Source: Escherichia coli 042
GTDB taxonomy: Bacteria; Pseudomonadota; Gammaproteobacteria; Enterobacterales; Enterobacteriaceae
DNA length: 64,000 nt
Direction: 5' to 3' (one strand)
Assembly: GCF_000027125.1 (NCBI RefSeq)
Contig: NC_017626.1
The position numbers and the translations under genes are program-made. Of the stretch, positions 1 to 57,871 are shown piece after piece (position 1 is the stretch's first letter; every line of letters begins with the position of its first letter). Below the pieces are notes generated by a model that was not told where the DNA came from, searched no databases, and saw only the letters and a program-made list of their open reading frames with translations.

Positions 1-36
1 CATTAAAAGCAACAGGAGTACCGCACTGGTACTCCT
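1..36 (-). terminator. Putative rho-independent terminator downstream of yhiD
   Basis: Hairpin ggagtacc/ggtactcc (15-35) followed on the minus strand by a U-rich tract; sits just 3' of the yhiD stop. Confidence 0.45.
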
Positions 37-57
37 GCGAATAAATAACTATACAGA

Positions 58-705
58 TTAGCTAATTGAAACGCCTTTCACCCCTGCCATACCTTTTAAT
101 AATCGCAACAGATCTTCTATCGACGTTGTGGCATGAAGCTGGATATCAATGGCGACCACTTCATGATCTTCATTTTCCTGCAACGAAACTAAATCAGTTT
201 TTATTTTTTGCTGCTTAAACCAGTCGAGCATTGACACCGTATTACCGTTCACTAATGTCAGCTGTAAATGGTAATTTTTGTTCATCAGGCGGAAGGTTAA
301 TTGATGGAAGACTTCCAGCACCAGTAAGGTCATCACTGAACCATAAATGCCCAGTTCGTACATACCGCTACCAATAACCATACCAATGGCGGCGGTCACC
401 CAGATATCCGCTGCCGTCGTCAGACCTACAATATTTTGGTTACGAACGAGAATGTTACCTGCACCGATAAACCCGACGCCCGTCACCACCTGAGCAGCAA
501 TACGGCTGGGGTCCAGTCCGACGTGATCTAAAGACAGCACGTCAGCAAAACCATATTTCGAAACAATCATAAACAGGGCGCTTCCCATGCCAATTAATAC
601 ATGTGTGCGTAACCCTGCTCCTTTGCCGCGCATTTGCCTTTCCATGCCAATAGCGCCACAGGCAATTGCTGCGAGTATAAGACGTATAATAAATTCTGCT
701 GTCAT
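58..705 (-). CDS. yhiD: MgtC-family inner membrane protein YhiD
   Basis: ORF 58..717 trimmed to the ATG at 703-705 (MTAEFIIRL...); the ORF-track start at 717 is a TTG. 215 aa, MgtC-like hydrophobic protein in the expected position next to hdeB. Confidence 0.9.
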   Translation of the reverse strand: MTAEFIIRLILAAIACGAIGMERQMRGKGAGLRTHVLIGMGSALFMIVSKYGFADVLSLDHVGLDPSRIAAQVVTGVGFIGAGNILVRNQNIVGLTTAADIWVTAAIGMVIGSGMYELGIYGSVMTLLVLEVFHQLTFRLMNKNYHLQLTLVNGNTVSMLDWFKQQKIKTDLVSLQENEDHEVVAIDIQLHATTSIEDLLRLLKGMAGVKGVSIS

Positions 706-768
706 ATAAAAATGCAAAAAGGAGCAGCAAGATGGCTCAACTTGCTACTCCTTTTTACTTGTACCTCA

Positions 769-1095
769 TTAATTCGGCAAGTCATTAGATGCTTGATTTT
801 TGAAGGTATACAAATTTTTCTGCGGGTTTTTCTTGCAGTATTCGATCACTTTAGGAATTTGAGTGAGATCGGTTTCATTTAAAGTAACGGTATCGCCACC
901 TTTATATACTGTTTCTTCATGCAGCATCCACCATGCAACCGGTGTCATGGCTTTTGGATTCAGATCAATAAATTCCTGGCAGGTCATATCTTTAGCGGAT
1001 TCATTGGCTGCCAGCGCAGATTGTGCGTTCACCAGTGACAAAGCCGCTACAGCGCCCATAAAAATAAACGCTTTACGGAGAGATGAAATATTCAT
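769..1095 (-). CDS. hdeB: Periplasmic acid-stress chaperone HdeB
   Basis: ORF 769..1107 trimmed to the ATG at 1093-1095 (MNISSLRKAFIFMGAVAALSLVNAQSALA, signal peptide); 108 aa; immediately downstream of hdeA on the same strand. Confidence 0.93.
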   Translation of the reverse strand: MNISSLRKAFIFMGAVAALSLVNAQSALAANESAKDMTCQEFIDLNPKAMTPVAWWMLHEETVYKGGDTVTLNETDLTQIPKVIEYCKKNPQKNLYTFKNQASNDLPN

Positions 1096-1210
1096 TTTGT
1101 AACCCATTCAATATAGAGATTATATATGAACAGGAGGAATAGCTGCTTTTAAAGAAGATATTCCGGCCTGTTCAATATGCAAGGAAGTACGATGTAACGC
1201 ATTCCCGGAA

Positions 1211-1543
1211 TTACATATCTTTCTTAATTTTGTCCCATTCGCCTTTAACTTTATCTTTAAAGTTGGCTTGTTTATCCTGAGTACAAGCCTGAACGATAGC
1301 TGGGGTTACGGTTGCAATACCCTGAACATCTAAAACCGCATCTTCTGGTTTATCTTTGTTGTTCAGCGCTTCAGCAAAACCAACTGCAGTTGGCTGGAAG
1401 GATTCGTCCACAGCCAGGAAATCTTCACAGGTCCAGGAGTTGACCGGTTTTTTGTTATCAGCTGCTTTTTGCGCATCCGCTGCATTGCTCACAACTGGCA
1501 GAAGAAGCAGACCACCAAGAATAACGCCTAATACTTTTTTCAT
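1211..1543 (-). CDS. hdeA: Periplasmic acid-stress chaperone HdeA
   Basis: 110-aa ORF MKKVLGVILGGLLLLPVVSNAADAQKAADNKKPVNSWTCEDFL... matching HdeA; signal peptide present. Confidence 0.95.
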   Translation of the reverse strand: MKKVLGVILGGLLLLPVVSNAADAQKAADNKKPVNSWTCEDFLAVDESFQPTAVGFAEALNNKDKPEDAVLDVQGIATVTPAIVQACTQDKQANFKDKVKGEWDKIKKDM

Positions 1544-1797
1544 CGTAATATCCTCAACTATAAAGTGAAAGAGCCGTCACGAATCAATTTCGACACTGAG
1601 GTTATAACCTGGTTTTCTGTATATGTCATGTTGATGGAAAATATCAAAATCAGATATTTTTATTTCAATACAATGAGTTACAGATGCATCAGATACTGTA
1701 ATTAGGAAATTTTTATTAAATCGACTGCATTCTTAGACGCGTTTTTGGCATAGATTGATAGCAGGGGATTTTCTTCTTAATTTTATAGGGTGGTTCT

Positions 1798-2370
1798 ATG
1801 TTATATATAGATAAGGCAACAATTTTGAAGTTTGATCTGGAGATGCTGAAAAAGCATCGCAGAGCAATCCAGTTTATTGCCGTGTTGCTGTTTATCGTCG
1901 GGTTGCTGTGTATCAGTTTCCCGTTCGTCTCTGGCGATATTTTAAGCACGGTAGTGGGTGCATTATTAATATGCTCGGGCGTTGCGCTTATTGTTGGATT
2001 ATTCAGCAACCGCAGTCATAATTTCTGGCCGGTATTATCCGGTTTCCTCGTCGCAGTCGCCTATTTATTGATCGGCTATTTCTTCATCCGCGCACCGGAG
2101 CTGGGCATTTTTGCCATTGCGGCATTTATTGCCGGTTTGTTCTGTGTTGCAGGGGTTATTCGCCTGATGAGTTGGTATCGTCAGCGTTCAATGAAAGGCA
2201 GCTGGCTACAGCTCGTTATTGGTGTGCTGGATATCGTCATTGCCTGGATATTCCTTGGTGCAACGCCGATGGTGTCTGTAACTTTGGTTTCCACACTGGT
2301 GGGTATTGAACTGATATTTAGCGCCGCCAGCCTGTTCAGCTTCGCCAGTTTGTTCGTTAAGCAGCAATAA
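1798..2370 (+). CDS. hdeD: Acid-resistance membrane protein HdeD
   Basis: 190-aa multi-TM ORF divergent from hdeAB; matches HdeD. Confidence 0.93.
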   Translation: MLYIDKATILKFDLEMLKKHRRAIQFIAVLLFIVGLLCISFPFVSGDILSTVVGALLICSGVALIVGLFSNRSHNFWPVLSGFLVAVAYLLIGYFFIRAPELGIFAIAAFIAGLFCVAGVIRLMSWYRQRSMKGSWLQLVIGVLDIVIAWIFLGATPMVSVTLVSTLVGIELIFSAASLFSFASLFVKQQ

Positions 2371-3166
2371 TTATCCCAGTTGTCACCCGGATCATAGTCA
2401 CTTGATGTGACTATGATCCGATTAATACTCTCTCCGCTACACAGCGTTGTAGATCAATTGCGCACTATCATTGAAATAATTACCTGCTGATGATTATTTC
2501 AACCTACTGAATTTCATCTGATTTTTTCATTCCATGGCAAATTAGCCATTTCAAACATTATCATGGCTGATATTTTCCGTAGTCAGGTTTAATGTTTTAA
2601 AAGTGCTGTGGGAAAGTGAACAAAGAGTTCCGTAAGCGTTGATGCTATGGGCGGTTAAATAAGTAATCCGGGTTCATTTTTTGCAACAGGCGTTGATTAC
2701 ATTGCATAAATATCCGTGTCTCCAGACGCTATATAAAAACCTGAAGACATGAATGAGTTATTTACTCAGGTAATTTCAATGCGTTAAAAGAAAGCTGGCA
2801 ATCCAATTGCCAGCTTAAGTCGAAACAAGGAGACTCGATATTTAAATCGGATTACATTTTAACTTTAGTAATATTCTTCAGAGATCACAAACTGGTTATT
2901 GATAACTTATTCTTGGGCAGTAATCCGCAAACGTTAACTTTTTGTTTACTATTTACAAACTGTTAACAACCAGGAATCTTACTTAGGATCAATATATGGA
3001 GTGCGTGATGGATAAATCTGAAGTATTGATTAGTGTTAATAAACGTATTAGTTCACGAAGGGCAAAGTTCTTATAGGCGTTTACTATATTGAACAACGAT
3101 TCGGACAAGGATGTAAATAATGAAAAGGATGACATGTGCGAAACGATAACGGCTAAGGAGCAAGTT

Positions 3167-3694
3167 ATGATTTTTCTCATGACGAAAGATTCTTTTCTTT
3201 TACAGGGCTTTTGGCAGTTGAAAGATAATCACGAAATGATAAAAATCAATTCCCTGTCAGAGATCAAAAAAGTAGGCAATAAACCCTTCAAGGTTATCAT
3301 TGATACCTATCACAATCATATCCTTGATGAAGAAGCGATTAAATTTCTGGAGAAATTAGATGCCGAGAGAATTATTGTTTTGGCACCTTATCACATCAGT
3401 AAACTAAAAGCTAAAGCGCCTATTTATTTTGTCAGCCGCAAAGAAAGTATCAAAAATCTTCTTGAGATTACTTATGGTAAACACTTGCCCCATAAGAATT
3501 CACAATTATGTTTTTCACATAATCAGTTCAAAATTATGCAACTGATTCTGAAAAATAAAAATGAAAGCAATATCACGTCGACGCTCAATATTTCGCAACA
3601 AACATTAAAGATTCAGAAATTCAACATTATGTACAAGCTGAAACTAAGACGTATGAGCGACATCGTCACCCTGGGTATCACATCTTATTTTTAG
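3167..3694 (+). CDS. gadE: LuxR-family acid-resistance master regulator GadE
   Basis: ORF 3089..3694 trimmed to the ATG at 3167 (MIFLMTKDSFLLQGFWQL...), preceded by AAGGAG at 3155-3160; 175 aa with C-terminal LuxR-type HTH. Confidence 0.93.
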   Translation: MIFLMTKDSFLLQGFWQLKDNHEMIKINSLSEIKKVGNKPFKVIIDTYHNHILDEEAIKFLEKLDAERIIVLAPYHISKLKAKAPIYFVSRKESIKNLLEITYGKHLPHKNSQLCFSHNQFKIMQLILKNKNESNITSTLNISQQTLKIQKFNIMYKLKLRRMSDIVTLGITSYF

Positions 3695-4032
3695 TCAGGA
3701 CATAAGCAACTGAAATTGATGGCTGGCATGACGAGGGATGCAGATGCTGATTTCATTACCCCCGGTGATTACTAAAGGAGAGGCGAAAACGACTTTATTC
3801 CCCTGGTATGTGTATCCACCAGTAGAACCCTTCGTTGCCCGAATGCTGGCAGGAACTGTTGGCAGAACGGCAACATTTTTTTTGTCGTTGACCTCACCAT
3901 GTCGATCACTATGCCTGTATCCCACCTTACTGGCTGACAACCCCACTATGCCGCTGGTCTGTAAATCCCTCATATCTCTCCTCGCGCGCAATTTAAAGAA
4001 CCGTTATTTCTCAAGAATTTTCAGGGACTAAA

Positions 4033-5190
4033 ATGAACAGAAGAAGAAAGCTGTTAATACCGTTGTTATTCTGCGGCGCGATGCTCACCGCCTGCGATGA
4101 CAAATCGGCGGAAAACGCCGCCGCCATGACGCCTGAGGTCGGTGTCGTCACGCTCTCCCCCGGTTCGGTCAATGTGTTGAGCGAATTACCCGGTAGAACC
4201 GTTCCTTATGAAGTTGCCGAGATACGTCCCCAGGTGGGCGGTATTATCATTAAACGCAACTTTATCGAAGGCGATAAAGTGAACCAGGGCGATTCGCTGT
4301 ATCAGATTGATCCTGCACCTTTACAGGCCGAGCTGAACTCCGCCAAAGGCACGCTGGCGAAAGCGCTCTCTACCGCCAGCAATGCCCGCATCACCTTTAA
4401 CCGCCAGGCATCGTTGCTGAAGACCAACTACGTTAGCCGTCAGGATTACGACACCGCGCGCACCCAGTTGAATGAAGCAGAAGCCAATGTCACCGTCGCC
4501 AAAGCGGCTGTTGAACAGGCGACTATCAACCTGCAATACGCAAATGTCACCTCGCCGATTACGGGCGTCAGCGGGAAATCGTCGGTGACCGTCGGCGCAC
4601 TCGTTACCGCTAATCAGGCAGATTCGCTGGTTACCGTACAACGTCTGGACCCGATTTATGTCGATCTCACGCAGTCGGTGCAGGATTTCTTGCGTATGAA
4701 AGAAGAGGTCGCCAGTGGGCAAATCAAACAGGTTCAGGGCAGTACGCCAGTACAGCTCAATCTGGAAAATGGTAAACGTTACAGCCAGACCGGCACGCTG
4801 AAATTCTCCGACCCGACGGTGGATGAAACCACGGGCTCCGTGACGTTACGGGCGATTTTCCCCAACCCAAATGGTGACTTGCTGCCTGGCATGTATGTCA
4901 CGGCATTAGTGGATGAAGGTAGCCGCCAGAATGTATTACTGGTGCCGCAGGAAGGTGTCACCCACAACGCCCAGGGTAAAGCAACGGCGCTCATTCTGGA
5001 TAAAGACGATGTTGTGCAGCTACGCGAAATTGAAGCCAGCAAAGCCATCGGCGACCAGTGGGTCGTCACCTCTGGCTTACAGGCTGGCGATCGGGTGATT
5101 GTTTCCGGTTTGCAACGCATTCGTCCGGGTATCAAAGCACGAGCAATTTCCTCCAGCCAGGAAAACGCCAGCACCGAATCGAAACAATAA
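4033..5190 (+). CDS. mdtE: RND efflux periplasmic adaptor (membrane fusion lipoprotein) MdtE
   Basis: 385-aa ORF with lipoprotein signal (LLFCGAMLTAC) and membrane-fusion-protein features; directly upstream of the RND pump gene. Confidence 0.95.
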   Translation: MNRRRKLLIPLLFCGAMLTACDDKSAENAAAMTPEVGVVTLSPGSVNVLSELPGRTVPYEVAEIRPQVGGIIIKRNFIEGDKVNQGDSLYQIDPAPLQAELNSAKGTLAKALSTASNARITFNRQASLLKTNYVSRQDYDTARTQLNEAEANVTVAKAAVEQATINLQYANVTSPITGVSGKSSVTVGALVTANQADSLVTVQRLDPIYVDLTQSVQDFLRMKEEVASGQIKQVQGSTPVQLNLENGKRYSQTGTLKFSDPTVDETTGSVTLRAIFPNPNGDLLPGMYVTALVDEGSRQNVLLVPQEGVTHNAQGKATALILDKDDVVQLREIEASKAIGDQWVVTSGLQAGDRVIVSGLQRIRPGIKARAISSSQENASTESKQ

Positions 5191-5214
5191 CGTTGCAGGC
5201 TTAAGGGGACTTTC

Positions 5215-8200
5215 ATGGCTAACTATTTTATTGATCGCCCGGTTTTTGCCTGGGTACTTGCCATTATTATGATGCTTGCAGGCGGTCTGGCGATCATGAA
5301 CTTACCGGTTGCGCAGTATCCGCAGATTGCGCCACCGACCATTACCATCAGCGCTACCTATCCAGGTGCCGATGCGCAAACGGTAGAAGACTCGGTCACT
5401 CAGGTGATTGAGCAAAATATGAATGGGCTTGATGGCCTGATGTACATGTCTTCAACCAGTGATGCGGCGGGTAATGCCTCTATTACTCTGACCTTCGAGA
5501 CTGGGACATCTCCTGATATCGCACAGGTTCAGGTGCAAAATAAACTGCAGCTCGCTATGCCTTCATTACCTGAAGCGGTGCAGCAGCAGGGGATTAGCGT
5601 CGATAAGTCGAGCAGTAATATCCTGATGGTAGCGGCGTTTATTTCTGATAACGGCAGCCTCAACCAGTACGATATCGCGGACTATGTAGCGTCTAATATC
5701 AAAGACCCGCTAAGCCGTACCGCGGGCGTTGGTAGCGTACAGCTCTTTGGTTCCGAGTACGCCATGCGTATCTGGCTGGACCCGCAAAAACTCAATAAAT
5801 ACAATCTGGTACCTTCCGATGTTATTTCCCAGATTAAGGTGCAGAACAACCAGATTTCTGGTGGGCAATTGGGTGGCATGCCACAGGCGGCAGACCAGCA
5901 GCTAAACGCCTCGATCATTGTGCAGACGCGTCTGCAAACGCCGGAAGAATTTGGCAAAATCCTGTTGAAAGTTCAGCAAGATGGTTCGCAAGTGCTGCTG
6001 CGTGATGTCGCCCGCGTCGAACTTGGAGCGGAAGATTATTCCACCGTGGCGCGCTATAACGGCAAACCTGCTGCCGGGATCGCCATCAAACTGGCTACCG
6101 GAGCAAACGCCCTGGATACCTCGCGGGCAGTCAAAGAGGAGCTGAACCGCTTATCAGCCTATTTCCCCGCAAGTCTGAAGACGGTTTATCCTTACGACAC
6201 CACGCCGTTTATCGAAATTTCTATTCAGGAAGTTTTTAAAACACTGGTTGAGGCTATCATCCTCGTCTTCCTGGTCATGTATCTGTTTTTGCAGAATTTC
6301 CGTGCCACAATCATCCCGACGATTGCCGTACCGGTGGTTATTCTCGGGACGTTTGCGATCTTGTCGGCGGTCGGTTTCACCATCAACACGTTAACTATGT
6401 TCGGGATGGTGCTGGCGATAGGGTTACTGGTGGATGACGCCATCGTGGTGGTGGAGAACGTCGAGCGTGTCATTGCGGAAGATAAGCTACCGCCGAAGGA
6501 AGCAACGCATAAATCGATGGGGCAGATCCAACGTGCGCTGGTCGGGATTGCCGTTGTTCTTTCCGCAGTGTTTATGCCGATGGCCTTTATGAGCGGTGCA
6601 ACCGGGGAGATCTACCGCCAGTTCTCCATCACGCTGATCTCCTCCATGCTGCTTTCAGTATTTGTGGCAATGAGCCTGACCCCTGCCCTGTGCGCCACCA
6701 TTCTGAAAGCCGCGCCGGAAGGCGGTCATAAACCTAACGCCCTGTTCGCACGCTTCAACACGCTGTTTGAAAAATCAACTCAGCACTATACCAATAGCAC
6801 CCGCTCGCTGTTGCGTTGTACCGGTCGCTACATGGTGGTCTACCTGCTGATTTGCGCCGGGATGGCGGTGCTGTTCCTGCGTACGCCGACCTCTTTCTTA
6901 CCAGAAGAGGATCAGGGGGTATTTATGACCACCGCGCAGTTACCTTCCGGTGCCACCATGGTTAACACCACGAAAGTGCTGCAACAGGTGACGGATTATT
7001 ATCTGACTAAAGAGAAAGATAATGTTCAGTCGGTGTTTACCGTTGGCGGCTTTGGCTTCAGCGGCCAGGGGCAAAACAACGGTCTGGCGTTTATCAGCCT
7101 CAAACCGTGGTCTGAACGTGTCGGTGAGGAAAACTCGGTTACCGCGATCATTCAGCGGGCAATGATTGCGTTAAGCAGTATCAATAAAGCCGTCGTCTTC
7201 CCGTTCAACTTACCCGCGGTGGCTGAACTGGGTACCGCGTCAGGTTTTGATATGGAACTGCTGGACAACGGCAACCTGGGGCACGAAAAACTGACCCAGG
7301 CGCGAAACGAGCTATTATCACTGGCAGCGCAATCACCGAATCAAGTCACCGGGGTACGTCCGAACGGACTGGAAGATACGCCGATGTTCAAAGTGAACGT
7401 CAACGCCGCGAAAGCTGAGGCAATGGGTGTGGCGCTGTCTGATATCAACCAGACAATTTCCACCGCCTTCGGCAGCAGCTACGTGAACGACTTCCTCAAC
7501 CAGGGGCGGGTGAAAAAAGTGTATGTCCAGGCAGGCACGCCGTTCCGTATGTTGCCGGATAACATCAACCAATGGTATGTACGCAACGCCTCTGGCACGA
7601 TGGCACCGCTTTCGGCCTATTCGTCTACCGAATGGACCTATGGTTCACCGCGACTGGAACGCTACAACGGCATCCCGTCAATGGAGATTTTAGGTGAAGC
7701 GGCGGCCGGGAAAAGTACCGGTGACGCCATGAAATTTATGGCAGACCTGGTCGCTAAACTTCCGGCAGGCGTCGGCTACTCATGGACCGGACTGTCGTAT
7801 CAGGAAGCGTTATCCTCAAATCAGGCTCCCGCGCTGTATGCCATTTCACTGGTCGTGGTGTTCCTCGCCCTCGCCGCACTTTATGAGAGCTGGTCAATTC
7901 CGTTCTCGGTGATGTTGGTTGTACCGTTAGGCGTCGTTGGCGCATTACTGGCCACCGATCTACGCGGCTTAAGTAATGACGTCTACTTCCAGGTTGGTTT
8001 GCTGACCACCATCGGGCTTTCCGCCAAAAACGCCATCCTGATTGTCGAATTTGCCGTTGAGATGATGCAGAAAGAAGGGAAAACGCCGATAGAGGCGATC
8101 ATCGAAGCGGCGCGAATGCGTTTACGCCCAATCCTGATGACCTCTCTGGCCTTTATTCTCGGCCTGCTGCCGCTGGTTATCAGTCATGGTGCCGGTTCTG

Positions 8201-8328
8201 GCGCGCAAAACGCGGTAGGTACCGGCGTGATGGGCGGGATGTTTGCCGCAACAGTGCTGGCAATTTACTTCGTTCCGGTCTTTTTCGTTGTAGTGGAACA
8301 TCTCTTTGCCCGCTTTAAAAAAGCGTAA
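5215..8328 (+). CDS. mdtF: RND multidrug efflux transporter MdtF
   Basis: 1037-aa ORF, AcrB-like 12-TM RND permease ([28 protein letters not shown]...). Confidence 0.96.
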
Positions 8329-8340
8329 CGTGTAAATGAG

Positions 8341-8380
8341 AGTAAGGTTGAACGTGAGGGTTCAGCCTTACTCTTTCCTG
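8341..8380 (+). terminator. Putative intrinsic terminator after mdtF
   Basis: Inverted repeat agtaaggttgaac / gttcagccttact followed by a T-rich tract, 13 nt after the mdtF stop. Confidence 0.4.
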
Positions 8381-8690
8381 CCAACCATTCACCACTCAAC
8401 AACCAGCTAACCGTCAGGAATACCAGGCTTAGTACACAGCACTGAAAGTAGAAACCACTCCAGCCATTCGTCATCAATTTGAATAACACAATAGTGACCC
8501 ACATTCCCGTAATCGTATGAATTGTCAGCTTAATAATCCCAAACATGCCGAGTCTTTTCCTCCTGAAAATACCTATACCGCCTGGCAAACTGCGAAAGAG
8601 AACTAGCCGGTAGCCCGGCAGAAATCATCAGGGAAGAGTTTCACATGAAGCAGGTGTGAGATCCTGACCAATATTCAAATGCAAAATATG

Positions 8691-9419
8691 TCAGGAAAAG
8701 GTACCTGGCGAATGTTGCGCAAACTGATGTGGCGTTACACCATAATATTGTCGAAATGTGTTTATAAAGTACGATGTACTGCTATAGCCACATTTTTCCG
8801 CAATAGTATGCAGAGGAATTTGACGTAACTCGAGTAATCGTCTGGCCATCGACATCCTGGAGGCGAGTAATATTTTACTGAAACAGGTATTTTCATCCTG
8901 CAACTTTTTTTTGATTAGACTCTCGCTGGTATACATTCTTTCCGCGATATCGCGCAGATACCAACGTTTAGCGATATCAAAGCTAATAAGGCGTTCAACT
9001 TTTCCTGAAACAGTACTGATACTATTGAAAAGTAAGGGGATCAGTTCTTTCTTATGAGAAAACATCGATAAACAGGAAAGATAGAGCATTTTGCTCAGTA
9101 TCGGCGAATTTACCCCGGAGTCATTGAAACTATCAAAAATCGCCGTCACCAGCGGCATGGGGGGTGACTGGTTAATTAACAGACGGTCTTTGCTATGTAA
9201 CCCTAAATTGCGTGGTATCTGACGAATATTTTGTAAGTAATGGCAAACTGTCAGCTCATCGATATCCAGTCGTCGCGTATCCGGTGAACAAAACGCAAAA
9301 TCGTCTGCCAAATTTTTATCCAGTAACAGGATACTCTCGTTGTGCAACGATATTTTTTGCTGTTCATGATAAATATCGAATGAACGACGAACGAGGATCA
9401 CCGAGCAGACATGAGTCAT
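8691..9419 (-). CDS. gadW: AraC-family acid-resistance regulator GadW
   Basis: 242-aa ORF with C-terminal AraC-type HTH (…YFINTFRQYYGVTPHQFAQHSPGTFS). Confidence 0.94.
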   Translation of the reverse strand: MTHVCSVILVRRSFDIYHEQQKISLHNESILLLDKNLADDFAFCSPDTRRLDIDELTVCHYLQNIRQIPRNLGLHSKDRLLINQSPPMPLVTAIFDSFNDSGVNSPILSKMLYLSCLSMFSHKKELIPLLFNSISTVSGKVERLISFDIAKRWYLRDIAERMYTSESLIKKKLQDENTCFSKILLASRMSMARRLLELRQIPLHTIAEKCGYSSTSYFINTFRQYYGVTPHQFAQHSPGTFS

Positions 9420-9665
9420 GACTATCCCTTATATTTCATTACTGCGATTATTTCAATTTCAGTATACTAATGAAATGATGCCAGACTGTTTCTTAGCGCA
9501 AAAACTGCCAGATTTGGTAGGACCAAAATTTATCCACAAAGTAGTTTTGCATAACAGTTAATTGATAATAAGTAAATGCAACACGAATATATTTTCGCAC
9601 AGCGTATAGCTTATGTTTATAAAAAAATGGCTGATCTTATTTCCAGTAAAAGTTATATTTAACTT

Positions 9666-9771
9666 ACTGAGAGCACAAAGTTTCCCGTGCCAACAGGGAG
9701 TGTTATAACGGTTTATTAGTCTGGAGACGGCAGACTATCCTCTTCCCGGTCCCCTATGCCGGGTTTTTTTT
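9666..9771 (+). ncRNA. gadY: Small regulatory RNA GadY, cis-antisense to the gadX 3' UTR
   Basis: Sequence actgagagcacaaagtttcccgtgccaacagggagtgttataacgg...cccggtcccctatgccgggtttttttt matches the GadY sequence as I recall it and ends in a GC hairpin plus T8 terminator on the plus strand, in the gadX-gadW intergenic region. Confidence 0.75.
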
Positions 9772-9787
9772 ATGTCTGAGTAAAACT

Positions 9788-25122: not shown

Positions 25123-25678
25123 TGGTTTTTGACGGAGAACGGGTAGATATTCGTTCTCCGTTAATCGCCTTGCAGGGGTGAACCGAACTATGCTGATAAT
25201 TTGAAGTAAACTGCTGACGCATATCATTCAAACTACGCGTAAATTTAAGCGGGTTCTCACCTTTAATTTCGACCGTGACGAAGACATTCCCATTGTTGTT
25301 AAAGAAGCCAAAATAATAGTCATGTTGATGACGACGATTGGTTTTAAATTGACGAAATGATAAATAGCAGCGGTTATCGTAGGTAATTAAAAAATCATTT
25401 TCTCCGTATTCGTTTATCATCTTATTTTTCAGGCTACCATCGAAGAGCACTGCATACTTATCTTTGTCAGCAAATAATTCGGCATCAGTTTCTCGGTTGA
25501 TCGTGTTGACGCTGATACCGAATTCTATTTTTACCTTGTCTTTATCGATATTATTTCTTGTGCTGACATACATATTATTGGCATCCCAGAGTAAGAGAAA
25601 GTTTTTGTTGCAGGAATAAAGACCTGTTAAGCAAAGAATGACTGTTAGCAAGAATAGTATGCGTTTTTTGTTACGCAT
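25094..25678 (-). CDS. Hypothetical lipoprotein (islet ORF A); 3' end reads across the islet junction into kdgK
   Basis: ATG at 25676-25678 preceded by AGGAG with 5-nt spacing; N-terminus MRNKKRILFLLTVILCLTGLYSC looks like a lipoprotein signal. The frame stays open across the junction near 25167 and ends inside the kdgK 3' end, so the native C-terminus may be truncated. Confidence 0.45.
   Translation of the reverse strand: MRNKKRILFLLTVILCLTGLYSCNKNFLLLWDANNMYVSTRNNIDKDKVKIEFGISVNTINRETDAELFADKDKYAVLFDGSLKNKMINEYGENDFLITYDNRCYLSFRQFKTNRRHQHDYYFGFFNNNGNVFVTVEIKGENPLKFTRSLNDMRQQFTSNYQHSSVHPCKAINGERISTRSPSKTIIPALPHAG
25133..25160 (+). terminator. Hairpin downstream of the kdgK stop (putative kdgK terminator)
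   Basis: Inverted repeat cggagaacg / cgttctccg starting 11 nt after the kdgK stop. Confidence 0.4.
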
Positions 25679-25739
25679 TTATACTCCTGAAAATGCGTTG
25701 AGGTCGCAAATATAATTAAATAGTCTGACATAAATAAAA

Positions 25740-26060
25740 TTAATTCCCTATCAATAATACATCTGCGACTTTTCTTGGTCCTTCGTAGATCTCAAATGCC
25801 TCGTACTTAGTCATCCATTGTTCAGGGGCGGTATCGAAAAGGAACTGAACGCACCCCATTGAAACGATACGTCCATCGGTTACATTAGGTTTTTCCAATT
25901 CAAAAACAACGCTCCATGCATTATTTTGCCAGTCAGTTTTCTCCTCTGGAAACCTGGAGACGGGATAATATCTACCGATAGGAGGTGCGCTCCTTCTGCC
26001 ACCTTCATTTTCTGTAAGCCAAACAACCTTTACACGATACATATGTTTCCATTCATTCAT
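25740..26060 (-). CDS. Hypothetical protein (islet ORF B, 106 aa)
   Basis: ATG at 26058-26060 lies 3 nt after the ORF C stop (TAA-TTA-ATG), suggesting translational coupling; no family recognised. Confidence 0.4.
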   Translation of the reverse strand: MNEWKHMYRVKVVWLTENEGGRRSAPPIGRYYPVSRFPEEKTDWQNNAWSVVFELEKPNVTDGRIVSMGCVQFLFDTAPEQWMTKYEAFEIYEGPRKVADVLLIGN

Positions 26061-26063
26061 TAA

Positions 26064-26543
26064 TTAAATTAAGTGTGAATTATATAATATTGCCACCCCA
26101 TGCGATCTTTCCCATTTTAGTCCATCAACTAATAATGATAGAAAAGAATACTGGAAGCTTATATTTTTAATCACTTCTATTTTTTCATCATCTAATGACA
26201 AGATTACCCACCCCCCGTAATTTTTGCTAACCAGGTTGTTAATAAATTTAATTATAGGATTGGTTGAAATATCCTTTCCTTTATTCACAGCCATTTCCAG
26301 GTCATCGACTAAAGAACCATTGAAGTTGTAAACATGATATTCATTAAAGTCTATGTGCTCATCTAAAGGTGGGCCATAAGTAATCGGTAGATTGCATCTC
26401 TGCAAAAGATGATGATTACACCAGGCGTATACCGGAGGGTCGCGATGAAAGGTTTCCCCACCCCAGTGAACCATAACCTCTTGTAGATCTAGTTCCTCTG
26501 GAGCGAATCGTGTAGGGAGTAAAATATCCAAGTGAAAATCCAT
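26064..26543 (-). CDS. Hypothetical protein (islet ORF C, 159 aa)
   Basis: ATG at 26541-26543 preceded by AGGATAGG; no recognisable motif; AT-rich codon usage. Confidence 0.45.
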   Translation of the reverse strand: MDFHLDILLPTRFAPEELDLQEVMVHWGGETFHRDPPVYAWCNHHLLQRCNLPITYGPPLDEHIDFNEYHVYNFNGSLVDDLEMAVNKGKDISTNPIIKFINNLVSKNYGGWVILSLDDEKIEVIKNISFQYSFLSLLVDGLKWERSHGVAILYNSHLI

Positions 26544-26642
26544 AGCCTATCCTAAATTTGGCACCCATAACATAAACTGTGTAAGAATCAACGACTGCCC
26601 CCCCAAAAATGGGAAAATTTACTTATTATGCAAAGTTACTTA

Positions 26643-26897
26643 TTAAGAAGCCCATTCCTCATTTTTTGGCAAATAGCCCTTTCGCCAACAGGTCAGAATC
26701 TTAAAACTCGCTCGCAAATAAAATTTATTAGCCGAATCGTTTTTAACCATTCTGACTAATGTCATCTCACCCGTTCTTTTATCTATCACGAACTCGCCGT
26801 AATCAGATCTACAATAGTCAGAAGATGTAGGTCCAAATTCATATTTTACTACTTTATCAGTTTCTTCAATTTTCAATATTTCTATATGATAGGCCAT
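26643..26897 (-). CDS. Hypothetical protein (islet ORF D, 84 aa)
   Basis: ATG overlaps the ORF E stop (TAATG, 26895-26899), a classic translational-coupling arrangement; no family recognised. Confidence 0.4.
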   Translation of the reverse strand: MAYHIEILKIEETDKVVKYEFGPTSSDYCRSDYGEFVIDKRTGEMTLVRMVKNDSANKFYLRASFKILTCWRKGYLPKNEEWAS

Positions 26898-27322
26898 TAT
26901 TTAACACCATCTATTGCCTGGCATCGTATACAGCTAAAACCAGTAGCTAAAATCTCAACATAACTATCATAACCTGCTATAATATAATGTTTTAACTTTA
27001 ACCGTTTTTTAGGGTCATATAATCTCTCTTTTTCTTCAAGCGGTACAGAATTCATTACTTGATATATACCGGAGTCCAGATTTTCACCATCAACCTTCTT
27101 AATAACAATATTGTTATAGTTGGCTTCATGAAAATTGACGGTAGCACACTTAACTTCAGCAACTGTAGTGAAGACCAGTTCAATTTGAACATAATCTTTC
27201 TCTGTTGATATTAACTCCAGAGCATCTACTTTAATGTTGACGCCATCAGACTCTGTATATGTTAAAGATAAATAAGTTGTGGAAATCCTGAATCCAATCG
27301 ATTGTGATTTTAACACAAGCAT
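26897..27322 (-). CDS. Hypothetical protein (islet ORF E, about 141 aa)
   Basis: ORF 26897..27346 starts at a GTG; the in-frame ATG at 27320-27322 (MLVLKSQSIGF...) has AAGGAG 7 nt upstream and is preferred. First gene of the minus-strand cluster. Confidence 0.45.
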   Translation of the reverse strand: MLVLKSQSIGFRISTTYLSLTYTESDGVNIKVDALELISTEKDYVQIELVFTTVAEVKCATVNFHEANYNNIVIKKVDGENLDSGIYQVMNSVPLEEKERLYDPKKRLKLKHYIIAGYDSYVEILATGFSCIRCQAIDGVK

Positions 27323-46973: not shown

Positions 46974-47059
46974 GAACGAAAAAGGCCGCAGAGTTTCACC
47001 CCTGCGGCCTGATCCGGGCGCAAATTGCCATTACGGCAGCCTGACGCCCGCATGACACG

Positions 47060-47167
47060 TTACTTCCGCTTATTCAGCGAGTTCACGATCAGACTGGCAA
47101 GAATGCCAGCAATGACCGGAGCCGCTAAATCATGCCAGAAGGCCATGCCCAGTTCTGCGAGCGTCAT
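47060..47167 (-). CDS. ldr: Ldr-family type I toxin peptide (35 aa), copy 1
   Basis: MTLAELGMAFWHDLAAPVIAGILASLIVNSLNKRK; ATG at 47165-47167. The ORF-track 80-aa ORF is an upstream in-frame extension. Confidence 0.85.
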   Translation of the reverse strand: MTLAELGMAFWHDLAAPVIAGILASLIVNSLNKRK

Positions 47168-47215
47168 ATAGCCGCCTCTGTTGTAATGACAACGTTTCGC
47201 GGCTATTCTTGAGTT

Positions 47216-47283
47216 GTTTGGGTTCAAGATTAGCCCCCGTGATGTTGTCAGGTGCATACCTGCAACGTGCGGGGGTTTTCTCT
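47216..47283 (+). ncRNA. rdl: Rdl-family antisense RNA, copy 1
   Basis: Plus-strand element ending in the hairpin gcccccg...cgggggttttctct within the ldr leader; coordinates inferred from my recollection of RdlD. Confidence 0.55.
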
Positions 47284-47542
47284 CTCCAGCAACCAATGCC
47301 ACCAGGGATTAAGCCCCCGCAACATTGCGCCTCACCGGAACCCTTCCGGCTTGCCGCTGATTCTACGGCCATTTTTGTTCGTCGAAATCCATCACTTCTT
47401 CACTCTGTGCTGCGCATTCCGCAGAATATTATCCGCTTGCAGCCGTTGCATTTTTCTTACGAAAAAGGCCGCAGAGTTTCACCTCTGCGGCCTGGTCCGG
47501 GCGCAAATTGCCATTACGGCAGCCTGACGCCCGTCTGACACG

Positions 47543-47650
47543 TTACTTCCGCTTATTCAGCCAGTTCACGATCATGCTGGCAAGAATGCCAGCAATGACC
47601 GGAGCCGCTAAATCATGCCAGAAGGCCATGCCCAGCTCTGCGAGCGTCAT
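47543..47650 (-). CDS. ldr: Ldr-family type I toxin peptide (35 aa), copy 2
   Basis: Same frame and length as copy 1; C-terminus ...ASMIVNWLNKRK; not reported separately in the ORF track. Confidence 0.8.
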   Translation of the reverse strand: MTLAELGMAFWHDLAAPVIAGILASMIVNWLNKRK

Positions 47651-47698
47651 ATAGCCGCCAGTGTTGTAATGACAACGTTTCGCGGCTATTCTTGAGTT

Positions 47699-47766
47699 GT
47701 GTAGGTTCAAGAATGGCCCCCGTCATATTGTCAGGTGAATACCTGCAACGTGCGGGGGTTTTCTCT
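47699..47766 (+). ncRNA. rdl: Rdl-family antisense RNA, copy 2
   Basis: Repeat-unit copy of the rdl element with terminator hairpin. Confidence 0.5.
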
Positions 47767-48025
47767 CTCCAGCAACCAATGCCACCAGGGATTAAGCCCC
47801 CGCAACATTGCGCCTCACCGGAACCCTTCCGGCTTGCCGCTGATTCTACGACTGTTTTTCTGTTCCGAAATCCATCACTTCTTCACTCTGTGCTGCGCAT
47901 TCCGCAGAATATTATCCGCTTGCAGCCGTTGCATTTTTCTTACGAAAAAGGCCGCAGAGTTTTATCCCTGCGGCCTGATCCGGGCGCAAATTGCCATTAC
48001 GGCAGCCTGACGCCCGTCTGACACG

Positions 48026-48133
48026 TTACTTCTGCTTGTTCAGCCAGTTCACGATCATGCTGGCAAGAATGCCAGCAATGACCGGAGCCGCTAAATCGTG
48101 CCAGAAGGCCATGCCCAGCTCTGCGAGCGTCAT
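48026..48133 (-). CDS. ldr: Ldr-family type I toxin peptide (35 aa), copy 3
   Basis: MTLAELGMAFWHDLAAPVIAGILASMIVNWLNKQK. Confidence 0.85.
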   Translation of the reverse strand: MTLAELGMAFWHDLAAPVIAGILASMIVNWLNKQK

Positions 48134-48181
48134 ATAGCCGCCTCTGTTGTAATGACAACGTTTCGCGGCTATTCTTGAGTT

Positions 48182-48249
48182 GTGTAGGTTCAAGAATGGC
48201 CCCCGTGATGTTGTCAGGTGCATACCTGCAACGTGCGGGGGTTTTCTCT
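48182..48249 (+). ncRNA. rdl: Rdl-family antisense RNA, copy 3
   Basis: Repeat-unit copy of the rdl element with terminator hairpin. Confidence 0.5.
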
Positions 48250-48508
48250 CTCCAGCAACCAATGCCACCAGGGATTAAGCCCCCGCAACATTGCGCCTCA
48301 CCGGAACCCTTCCGGCTTGCCGCTGATTCTACGACTGTTTTTCTGTTCCGAAATCCATCACTTCTTCACTCTGTGCTGCGCATTCCGCAGAATATTATCC
48401 GCTTGCAGCCGTTGCATTTTTCTTACGAAAAAGGCCGCAGAGTTTCACCTCTGCGGCCTGGTCCGGGCGCAAATTGCCATTACGGCAGCCTGACGCCCGT
48501 CTGACACG

Positions 48509-48616
48509 TTACTTCCGCTTGTTCAGCCAGTTCACGATCATGCTGGCAAGAATGCCAGCAATGACCGGAGCCGCTAAATCATGCCAGAAGGCCATGCCCA
48601 GTTCTGCGAGCGTCAT
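48509..48616 (-). CDS. ldr: Ldr-family type I toxin peptide (35 aa), copy 4
   Basis: MTLAELGMAFWHDLAAPVIAGILASMIVNWLNKRK. Confidence 0.85.
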   Translation of the reverse strand: MTLAELGMAFWHDLAAPVIAGILASMIVNWLNKRK

Positions 48617-48664
48617 ATAGCCGCCTGAGTTGTAATGACAACGTTTCGCGGCTATTCTTGAATG

Positions 48665-48732
48665 GTCTAGATGCAAGAATGGCCCCCGTGGTGTTGTCAG
48701 GTGCATACCTGCAACGTGCGGGGGTTTTCTCT
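48665..48732 (+). ncRNA. rdl: Rdl-family antisense RNA, copy 4 (RdlD-like)
   Basis: gtctagatgcaagaatggcccccgtggtgttgtcaggtgcatacctgcaacgtgcgggggttttctct, the copy closest to the RdlD sequence as I recall it. Confidence 0.6.
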
Positions 48733-48991
48733 CTCCAGCAACCAATGCCACCAGGGATTAAGCCCCCGCAACATTGCGCCTCACCGGAACCCTTCCGGCT
48801 TGCCGCTGATTCTACGGCCATTTTTGTTCGTCGAAATCCATCACTTCTTCACTCTGTGCTGCGCATTCCGCAGAATATTATCCGCTTGCAGCCGTTGCAT
48901 TTTTCTTACGAAAAAGGCCGCAGAGTTTTATCCCTGCGGCCTGATCCGGGCGCAAATTGCCATTACGGCAGCCTGACGCCCGTCTGACACG

Positions 48992-49099
48992 TTACTTCTG
49001 CTTGTTCAGCCAGTTCACGATCATGCTGGCAAGAATGCCAGCAATGACCGGAGCCGCTAAATCGTGCCAGAAGGCCATGCCCAGCTCTGCGAGCGTCAT
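48992..49099 (-). CDS. ldr: Ldr-family type I toxin peptide (35 aa), copy 5
   Basis: MTLAELGMAFWHDLAAPVIAGILASMIVNWLNKQK. Confidence 0.85.
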   Translation of the reverse strand: MTLAELGMAFWHDLAAPVIAGILASMIVNWLNKQK

Positions 49100-49147
49100 A
49101 TAGCCGCCTCTGTTGTAATGACAACGTTTCGCGGCTATTCTTGAGTT

Positions 49148-49215
49148 GTGTAGGTTCAAGAATGGCCCCCGTGATGTTGTCAGGTGCATACCTGCAACGT
49201 GCGGGGGTTTTCTCT
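49148..49215 (+). ncRNA. rdl: Rdl-family antisense RNA, copy 5
   Basis: Repeat-unit copy of the rdl element with terminator hairpin. Confidence 0.5.
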
Positions 49216-49574
49216 CTCCAGCAACCAATGCCACCAGGGATAAAGCCCCCGCAACATTGCGCCTCACCGGAACCTTTCCGGCTTGCCGCTGATTCTACGA
49301 TTGCTTTTTACCGTCAGCACCCGGCAATCTTCCTCATTGCGCGATGCCTTCCAGCTTAATTTCTTTATTTGCAATAGTTGCAGTTCATATCCGGGCTGAC
49401 TCCAGACTGGTAGTGAAATGCGCAATTTTGTAGAATTGCGCCTCCTCGCGACCTCCCCAGTGAATCTGTTGCCTCATTTTTTACATACTGCGTATTCGAC
49501 TTCTCCACCTGTTGCGCAAGAGAAACTGGGTTTATTCATTTTTGCGAGGCCGACTTCTTTCTGGACAGGACTTT

Positions 49575-54900: not shown

Positions 54901-55072
<172 letters not shown>

Positions 55073-56750: not shown

Positions 56751-57295
56751 CCCTTTGCAGTGGGTTGTCGCTGCCTGACCTTTTTTGTTTTTTGCCCGGT
56801 CGGGTCAACGTTATGAGGTGGGGATGCCGTACTAATTAACATCAGTGTAACAGTGCGGATCCTCCATAAAATGCCCCTCGTGACCTACAATCTGTCAACA
56901 GAATGTGAAAACGTCAATACAGCCAACCGGGATTTACACCAACGGTGAGAATCCACAAACAAAGATTAAAAAAACTTCAAACAGCTATTTGCAGCAGAGA
57001 AATTTGTGCTACTCCAACATGACCAGAACAATCAGCTTAATATTTAGCAACAATTGGTGATTAAGTTTTATGCATTTTGTGAAAAAAATCTGAGGAAAAG
57101 GTGGATATCTGAGCGATTAATACCATGAACGCTAAAACGCACAGCGGAAAATGCCAGCGCCAGCCATAAGTAACGCAAAAAAAAATTTAAGCAAATATAA
57201 AAAAAGACAATGGTTTCTGTCACAAATCCGTTAATGGATAGTGAGATATGGGCGCAAATTTGGCAGGAAAATGTGTGGTGTGTAGGTCGAATAAG

Positions 57296-57794
57296 GCGGT
57301 CGCGCCGCATCCGACAATGGGCCGGCACATTTGCCTGATGCGACGCTGGCGCGTCTTATCAGGCCTACGTCGAATCGAACCTCCCTGCCCCCGGAAGTTC
57401 TCATCCTCTTCAGGCCGCAGAAAGCAAAAAACCAGCCCGTAGGCTGGTTTTTCTAAATTGGTCGGTGATAGAGGATTACTCGCCACTTCGTGGCTCGCCC
57501 TGCGGGCCGTTGCTGGCGCAACGTTCTCTCGCTTCGCTCGAGTCGAATCTCCCTGCCCCCGGAGGTTCTCATCCTCATAGGCTACAAATGCAAAAAAGCC
57601 TGCTCGCTGAGCAGGCTTTTCGAATTTGGTCGGTGCCAGAGGATTACTCGCCACTTCGTGGCTCGCCCTGCGGGCCGTTGCTGGCGCAACGTTCTCTCGC
57701 TTCGCTCGAGTCGAACCTCCCTGCCCCCGGAGGTTCTCATCCTCATGGGCTACAAATGCAAAAAAGCCTGCTCGCTGAGCAGGCTTTTCGAATT
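57296..57794. repeat. Three tandem imperfect direct repeats (about 150-185 bp), each ending with a terminator hairpin plus a roughly 20-nt copy of the proK 3' end
   Basis: Units at about 57296-57479, 57480-57648 and 57649-57794. Each contains tcgaa(t/c)ctccctgcccccgga(a/g)gttctcatcctc, a hairpin (aaaaaaccagcccgtaggctggttttt or aaaaaagcctgctcgctgagcaggctttt) and aatttggtcggtg(at/cc)agaggatt, which matches the proK 3' terminus. Confidence 0.7.
57762..57790 (-). terminator. Rho-independent terminator of proK
   Basis: On the minus strand aaaagcctgctcagcgagcaggcttttttg, 5 nt after the tRNA 3' end. Confidence 0.65.

Positions 57795-57871
<77 letters not shown>

Follow-up and report, generated by a model that had tools for sequence, protein, structure and literature searches.

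Is the long non-coding stretch in front of gadE in Escherichia coli 042 still the regulatory region that has been described in K-12, with all of its promoters and its antisense RNA ArrS in place? The window analysed here is a whole stretch of 64 kb, and its first 8.3 kb are the E. coli acid fitness island, with the gene order yhiD-hdeB-hdeA / hdeD-gadE-mdtE-mdtF (Table 1). According to the open reading frames, the gene order, and RefSeq, hdeD and gadE lie on one strand with the interval between them; the RefSeq annotation of the near-identical strain 118UI agrees with both boundaries (hdeD stop at 2370, gadE ATG at 3167). We consider it very probable that 2371-3166 is an intact orthologous copy of the E. 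coli hdeD-gadE intergenic region, to which the K-12 model of multiple promoters and ArrS applies. A preliminary description of this DNA had called the interval upstream of gadE unusually long and AT-rich, and it is both. It is 796 bp long and has a GC content of 0.359, compared with 0.506 for the whole window; this AT-richness is matched by only 1.85% of all 796-bp windows, and the block 2401-3200 has the lowest GC content among eighty 800-bp blocks. By a crude measure (a gap being any stretch with no ORF of at least 110 aa), it ranks second among the ORF-free gaps in the 64 kb, exceeded only by an LDR repeat array.

The counterpart in K-12 MG1655 (NC_000913.3, 3657568-3658365; 798 bp) is colinear and about 97.5% identical, and shares the flanking genes and their orientation. 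The differences amount to 18 substitutions and two 1-nt deletions in T-runs (T6 here against T7 in K-12, at 2522-2527 and at 2677-2682). These contractions are the only length changes; the rearrangement or deletion of upstream promoter DNA that the preliminary description had named as the finding to its detriment is absent. Substitutions in the distal stretch occupied by GadX and GadW are found at 2520, 2530, and 2533, beside the T6 run 2522-2527. Further differences from K-12 are a clade-specific G-to-A at 3042 (-125 from the gadE ATG, adjoining T1), and changes at 3063 (-104), 3136, and 3138 (-31 and -29); 2757-2947 has none. The interval was found by megablast in 5413 of 5426 complete E. 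coli genomes, chromosomal in every case, and in 5406 of them with a coverage of at least 80%. Apart from the base at 3138 (see below), its substitutions and T-run contractions are shared with a minority allele group (154 of the 5413 genomes at 99% identity or more, e.g. strain 118UI), the majority of the remaining genomes being 95-98.6% identical to it. Within E. coli, variation clusters in two spots, namely the first ~160 nt beside hdeD and 2932-2963, and very few variable sites occur in 2534-2931.

The substitution at 3138 is private to the window: the six other E. coli of our first alignment all have T, and an exact match to 3100-3175 occurs in none of 5411 E. coli genomes. The base affected is the final one of the -10-like hexamer that precedes the -21 start; this hexamer reads CATATT in K-12, CATGTT in most strains, and CATGTG here. 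The substitution could be a sequencing error. When the gadE leader was folded with G or T at this position, the predicted accessibility of the Shine-Dalgarno sequence was 0.58 versus 0.24 in a 157-nt context and 0.60 versus 0.55 in a 100-nt context; the K-12 allele resembles the window allele, and the effect on the ribosome-binding site is inconsistent between contexts. Among the other genomes, E. coli strain 3059 (NZ_CP103559.1) has a match to the interval that stops at 2601, one base before the T3 start; from the equivalent of 2602 a Tn3-family transposase remnant has taken the place of all that follows in the interval, of gadE, and of the sequence onward into part of gadA.

Table 1. Features of the hdeD-gadE region and its surroundings in the window. 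Identities are ranges over the eight other sequences of a nine-sequence Escherichia alignment, each compared with the window.
Feature	Position	Strand	Basis and remarks	Identity to window
yhiD	58-717	minus		
hdeB	769-1107	minus		
hdeA	1211-1543	minus		
hdeD	1798-2370	plus		
hdeD-gadE intergenic region (gadE 'sensory integration region')	2371-3166		796 bp, 35.9% GC; bounded by hdeD stop and gadE ATG	
Hairpin 3' of hdeD	2388-2420	plus (listed)	perfect 14-bp stem, 5-nt loop, no U-tract; starts 18 nt after hdeD stop	
YdeO-box hexamers (ATTTCA/TGAAAT), four	2472-2477; 2496-2501, 2511-2516, 2548-2553	minus; plus	upstream of P3	
GadX (four peaks) and GadW (two peaks) ChIP-exo occupancy of K-12	2515-2621		spans P3; PMC4918353 suppl. 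tables 2-3	
P3 core promoter block, T3 start 2602	2537-2610	plus	PMC3708157; identical to K-12	95-100%
Best GadX/GadW motif match, ATGGCTGATATTTTCCGTAG	2563-2582	plus	2 mismatches in 20; -39 to -20 of T3	
T3-leader-specific segment	2611-2785	plus	P3 to ArrS-complementary stretch; holds T6/T7 difference 2677-2682	27-40% in four most distant lineages; 99% in K-12 and B2
YdeO-box hexamer, fifth	2773-2778			
ArrS sRNA gene	2786-2855	minus	70 nt, cis-antisense to gadE T3 leader; K-12 arrS b4704, 100% identity	94-100%
ArrS intrinsic terminator	2792-2816	minus	11-bp stem, 3-nt loop, UUUCUUUU; terminator scan and RNA fold	
T2 (-324) and T4 (-317) 5' ends	2843, 2850	plus	PMC3708157; inside ArrS gene	
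Putative ArrS promoter	2862-2890	minus	-35 TTGTGA 2890-2885, 17-nt spacer, -10 TAAAGT 2867-2862; read from sequence	
GadE site	2966-3005			85-100%
GadE ChIP-exo footprint of K-12	2971-3005		centre -55 from T1; PMC4918353 suppl. table 1, peak P11	
Candidate upstream ORF, 26 codons, MECVMDKSEVLISVNKRISSRRAKFL	2996-3076	plus	AGGA 7 nt upstream; on T2/T3/T4 leaders only	
P1	3006-3042			86-97%
T1 start 3043 (-124) and 124-nt T1 leader	3043-3166	plus	PMC3708157	93-99%
Private T-to-G	3138 (-29)	plus	last base of -10-like hexamer upstream of -21 start	
'-21' 5' end (T)	3146	plus	PMC3708157	
Shine-Dalgarno AAGGAG	3155-3160	plus		
gadE	ATG 3167, stop 3694	plus		
GadF/ES205, gadE 3'-UTR sRNA	3812-3883		Rfam	
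mdtE	4033-5190			
mdtF	5215-8328			
GadY	9663-9776		Rfam RF00122	

Identity, coordinates, integrity, conservation, and the features themselves are derived here from the sequence, and the start sites, the protein occupancy, the ArrS mechanism, and the H-NS silencing are taken from the K-12 literature; the results of Ma 2004, Sayed and Foster 2009, and Aiso 2011/2014 are cited second-hand via PMC3708157, PMC6755755, PMC6212723, and PMC8708148. The K-12 gadE 5' ends were reported at -566 (T3), -324/-317 (T2/T4), -124 (T1), and -21 from the ATG (PMC3708157). In the window they map to 2602, 2843/2850, 3043, and 3146, a span of 545 bp, in line with the preliminary description of gadE as driven by several spread-out promoters; the check it proposed, an alignment of the known starts and ArrS to the interval, placed every element. 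The contexts of the starts are kept: those of T3 and T2/T4 are identical to K-12, that of T1 has one change (-125), and that of the -21 end, which stems either from a weak promoter or from processing, differs at -31 and -29. The ChIP-exo peak centres of PMC4918353 (tabulated in U00096.2 coordinates, to which 1977 is added for U00096.3), combined with their stated distance to the transcription start, reproduce -566 and -124 exactly.

GadX/GadW sites at P3 and a GadE site upstream of P1 were both located. The GadX and GadW peaks (3655735-3655842 in U00096.2, i.e. -654 to -547 from the gadE ATG) were mapped through the alignment. The best match to the GadX/GadW motif AKGKCTGWTWTTWWYMYVAK (PMC4918353) lies inside the mapped GadX peaks and is invariant in all nine Escherichia sequences. 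The GadE peak P11 (3656193-3656227; -196 to -162) falls on sequence identical to K-12 and contains TTAGGA (2983-2988), the only exact TTARGA core of the interval. The YdeO box has been defined and YdeO reported to bind the gadEp2p3 promoters (PMC4222967); the interval holds five such hexamers where dinucleotide shuffles give 1.3 (P ~0.005), four of them clustered in 2472-2553. The search for GAD-box-like 20-mers that the preliminary description had recommended yielded nothing of use: the best match to TTAGGATTTTGTTATTTAAA in the interval reaches 13 of 20, a score that shuffles attain 88% of the time, and the GadE site was therefore placed from the published ChIP-exo coordinates. The EvgA 18-mer TTCYTACANNTGTARGAA has no match in the interval at up to 5 mismatches, and a generic sigma-70 consensus scan of the interval gave 4 hits against 3.5 expected, none at any published start. 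Since the GAD-box, EvgA, and sigma-70 scans do not rise above chance, our promoter and operator assignments rest on homology to the K-12 experiments.

The K-12 gene arrS (b4704) occupies 3657985-3658054 on the minus strand, or -381 to -312 from the gadE ATG, and its copy here is the same in 70-nt sequence, position, strand, terminator, and upstream promoter sequence. The RNA, GUAAUCCGAUUUAAAUAUCGAGUCUCCUUGUUUCGACUUAAGCUGGCAAUUGGAUUGCCAGCUUUCUUUU, folds into a weakly structured 5' part followed by an 11-bp Rho-independent terminator hairpin and then UUUCUUUU (-20.2 kcal/mol, z = -3.84). ArrS is identical in 4095 of 5411 E. coli genomes. Upstream of it we propose the promoter hexamers listed in Table 1, with a C at -13 and 6 nt between the -10 and the +1 G at 2855. 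The C would fit the reported sigma-S dependence of ArrS. This -35 is invariant, and the -10 conserved or improved in eight of the nine Escherichia sequences. Only the T3 leader contains the full 70-nt complement of ArrS: the T3 start lies 184 nt upstream of the ArrS 3' end, the T2 and T4 starts fall within the ArrS gene, leaving these transcripts an overlap of 13 and 6 nt with the RNA, respectively, and T1 starts downstream of it. The statement that ArrS overlaps the far-upstream gadE 5' UTR can thus be made precise. In keeping with this geometry, the longest gadE transcript is the one to which ArrS has been described as complementary (PMC6755755). A search of positions 1-9000 against Rfam at E <=1 gave no match within the interval, ArrS included.

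In K-12, ArrS is induced by acid via sigma-S and GadE (PMC6755755, among others), its overexpression leads to higher acid survival, and the gadE/ArrS duplex is a substrate of RNase III, with a positive effect on GadE; it also binds Hfq and acts in trans, for instance in the activation of cfa (PMC6755755, among others). H-NS and StpA silence the whole locus, and ArcA counteracts them at P3 and P1 (PMC3708157, among others). By analogy with K-12, the start sites, the occupancy, the ArrS mechanism, and the silencing presumably operate unchanged in E. coli 042. Accounting for gadE in this way, the gene (and gadE-mdtEF) would be transcribed from several starts with different regulators feeding each of them. 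The distal P3, ringed by GadX/GadW sites and YdeO boxes, would give rise to a transcript with a 565-nt leader, and the proximal P1 would fire 55 bp downstream of the site at which GadE, with RcsB, may activate its own gene; further ends would arise at 2843/2850 and 3146. ArrS would be made from its own sigma-S-type promoter and end at its intrinsic terminator, and its duplex with the T3 leader would be cut by RNase III, raising gadE mRNA stability and GadE output; its action in trans, e.g. on cfa, would pass through Hfq. The region, its promoters, its regulators, and ArrS are already well described in the literature, and the copy here is an ordinary and intact one, so that the standard K-12 regulatory model should be transferable to E. 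coli 042. Our results leave the current understanding unchanged; what is gained are window coordinates for each published element, the allele differences of the strain, and a cross-species map of the constrained sub-blocks.

That map raises the question of how much of the interval matters. Three blocks, the P3 core, ArrS, and the GadE site together with P1 and the T1 leader, surpass the flanking genes in conservation: in the four most distant lineages, the coding sequences of hdeD and gadE share only 85-90% identity with the window (gadE 89-90%). Between P3 and ArrS, the T3-specific leader behaves otherwise. It is 88% identical in the intermediate lineages MOD1-EC7003 and SCPM-O-B-8794, and in the most distant ones (strain E69, Escherichia sp. 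E1V33, E. whittamii, and E. albertii) only 27-40% of its positions match, with gaps of ~60-90 nt. In these lineages similarity returns at the 3' end of ArrS, give or take a few bases (blastn segments begin at 2776-2786, and a conserved run at ~2785). Because similarity resumes there after a degenerate leader, ArrS and both promoter blocks look individually constrained.

The same pattern could be read differently, much of the 796 bp being non-functional AT-rich spacer from a horizontally acquired island, coated by H-NS, in which only short islands matter and the length is incidental. The low GC content and a silencing by H-NS/StpA that spans the whole locus agree with this, as do 2421-2536 and 2611-2785, whose conservation drops to 27-59% in the four most distant lineages, and the shrinkage of the whole region there to ~720-740 bp through deletions in 2611-2785. 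However, 2611-2785 is 99% conserved within typical E. coli (K-12, phylogroup B2), the three blocks exceed the flanking genes in conservation, and removal of the P3 region lowered the activity to about one third in published truncations (PMC3708157). We hold such a reading of the region to be possible but doubtful; for the variable segments alone it is compatible with the regulatory model taken over from K-12.

A second doubt concerns the number of promoters. T2 and T4 may be RNase III products of the T3 leader in its duplex with ArrS, which would leave two real promoters, P3 and P1, and a processing site. Both ends fall where the leader is complementary to ArrS, at distances of 13 and 6 nt from the 5' end of ArrS, no convincing -35/-10 precedes them, fusions carrying only P2/P4 were inactive in anaerobic assays (PMC3708157), and RNase III cleavage of the gadE/ArrS pair has been reported. 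Against this, MnmE-dependent gadE expression is attributed mainly to the P2 region in Sayed and Foster 2009, as far as that work is cited in PMC3708157, YdeO was found bound at 'gadEp2p3' promoters (PMC4222967), and good consensus hexamers are often missing from activator-dependent promoters. On balance we think that processing is unlikely to be the origin of T2 and T4, although their positions inside the ArrS duplex keep the idea alive. If T2 and T4 are promoter starts, as in the multi-promoter model that we favour, they interpenetrate with the putative ArrS promoter (2862-2890), and RNA polymerase at one should occlude the other.

Six ORFs of at least 20 codons lie wholly inside the interval. 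Five of them are disrupted in other Escherichia sequences, and only the one at 2996-3076 stays open in all nine. With its conserved ATG and stop and its AGGA, it might be a small protein gene read from the long leaders, be it for a functional peptide or as a regulatory upstream ORF. We find this very improbable. Of its 13 variable columns, 3, 6, and 4 occupy codon positions 1, 2, and 3, respectively, and most of the changes are non-synonymous, which is no coding signature; codons 11-22 are invariant with their third positions included and coincide with the P1 promoter and the T1 start, so that the constraint is explained at the level of DNA or RNA. Moreover, the ORF is not annotated in the K-12 RefSeq record, exact look-ups of the peptide returned only single mis-named fragments on ~1.2-kb contigs (contig-end artefacts), and a literature search for a gadE upstream ORF gave nothing relevant. 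The AGGA in front of the ORF, its ribosome-binding motif, also forms the core of the GadE box. A translated upstream ORF coupling translation of the T2/T3 leaders to gadE expression, which if real might help to explain why the block of P1 and the T1 leader is better conserved than the gadE coding sequence, is slightly less probable still.

At the other end of the interval, the hairpin 2388-2420 folds as RNA with -25.0 kcal/mol (z = -9.95). In the nine Escherichia sequences 94.4% of its cells are paired, against 23-47% in slid controls, and compensatory changes at both positions are seen in three pairs (GGATC/GATCC to GCCTC/GAGGC). Judged by its mismatches and wobble pairs, the plus strand is the better candidate for the functional strand in one lineage, and the minus strand in three. 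It is probably the 3'-end hairpin of the hdeD transcript.

Further down the same island, GadY resembles ArrS: both are acid-response RNAs associated with Hfq and antisense to the transcript of a gad regulator. GadY also directs mRNA processing that raises expression. RNase III-dependent action is documented here for ArrS only. The two RNAs have no sequence relationship. GadY overlaps the gadX 3' UTR in the gadX-gadW intergenic region and ArrS a 5' leader; GadY is the subject of an Rfam family (RF00122), and ArrS matched none at E <=1. According to RIL-seq data, both act in trans as well.

A scan of representative genomes for the 21-mer of the ArrS terminator matched, within Escherichia, E. albertii, E. 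whittamii, two other Escherichia species, and two divergent 'E. coli'. Two Photobacterium species and Terribacillus halophilus also carry the exact 21-nt palindrome GCTGGCAATCCAATTGCCAGC (L009 6493-6519, L017 1880-1906, and L016 4558-4578), where by our estimate ~0.14 hits would be expected by chance. Each of these copies of GCTGGCAATCCAATTGCCAGC stands beside an A- or T-run and resembles an intrinsic terminator; we read GCTGGCAATCCAATTGCCAGC in these genera as convergent terminator hairpins with no homology to ArrS.

Several other observations were made along the window and in other assemblies. Contig NZ_JAUFQN010000010.1 of 'Flavobacterium paronense' CECT 8460 (8635 bp) matches window positions 1-7366 over 7.4 of its 8.6 kb with 98.1% identity, and is almost certainly E. 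coli contamination in that assembly. Between yhiD and hdeB, a near-perfect palindromic hairpin (715-757) drew a sub-threshold 'mir-761' match on both strands (E ~0.35), spurious as a microRNA; it is likely a bidirectional terminator-like stem. Antisense to the gadE-mdtE spacer there is a 98-codon ORF (3695-3991, minus strand), with which the GadF sRNA (ES205, 3812-3883) overlaps. The counterpart of this ORF is a 'hypothetical protein' in the RefSeq annotation of several strains, and the K-12 record has gadF there; the ORF was probably called as a gene in error. Strong AT-richness is seen a second time at 25601-27200, over ~1.6 kb with a GC content of 0.36. The tandem array at 46976-49309 (4.8 copies of a 483-bp unit with 95% matches) holds five Rfam rdlD antitoxin hits, at 47216, 47699, 48182, 48665, and 49148, and is an expanded LDR array (ldr/rdl type I toxin-antitoxin); K-12 presumably has a single ldrD/rdlD copy at this locus. 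Rfam also reports ES036 at 55009-55051 and naRNA4 at 57285-57365, and a tRNA-Pro(CGG) gene (57795-57871, minus) is followed by two RtT-family hits at 57459-57592 and 57627-57762, both likewise on the minus strand.
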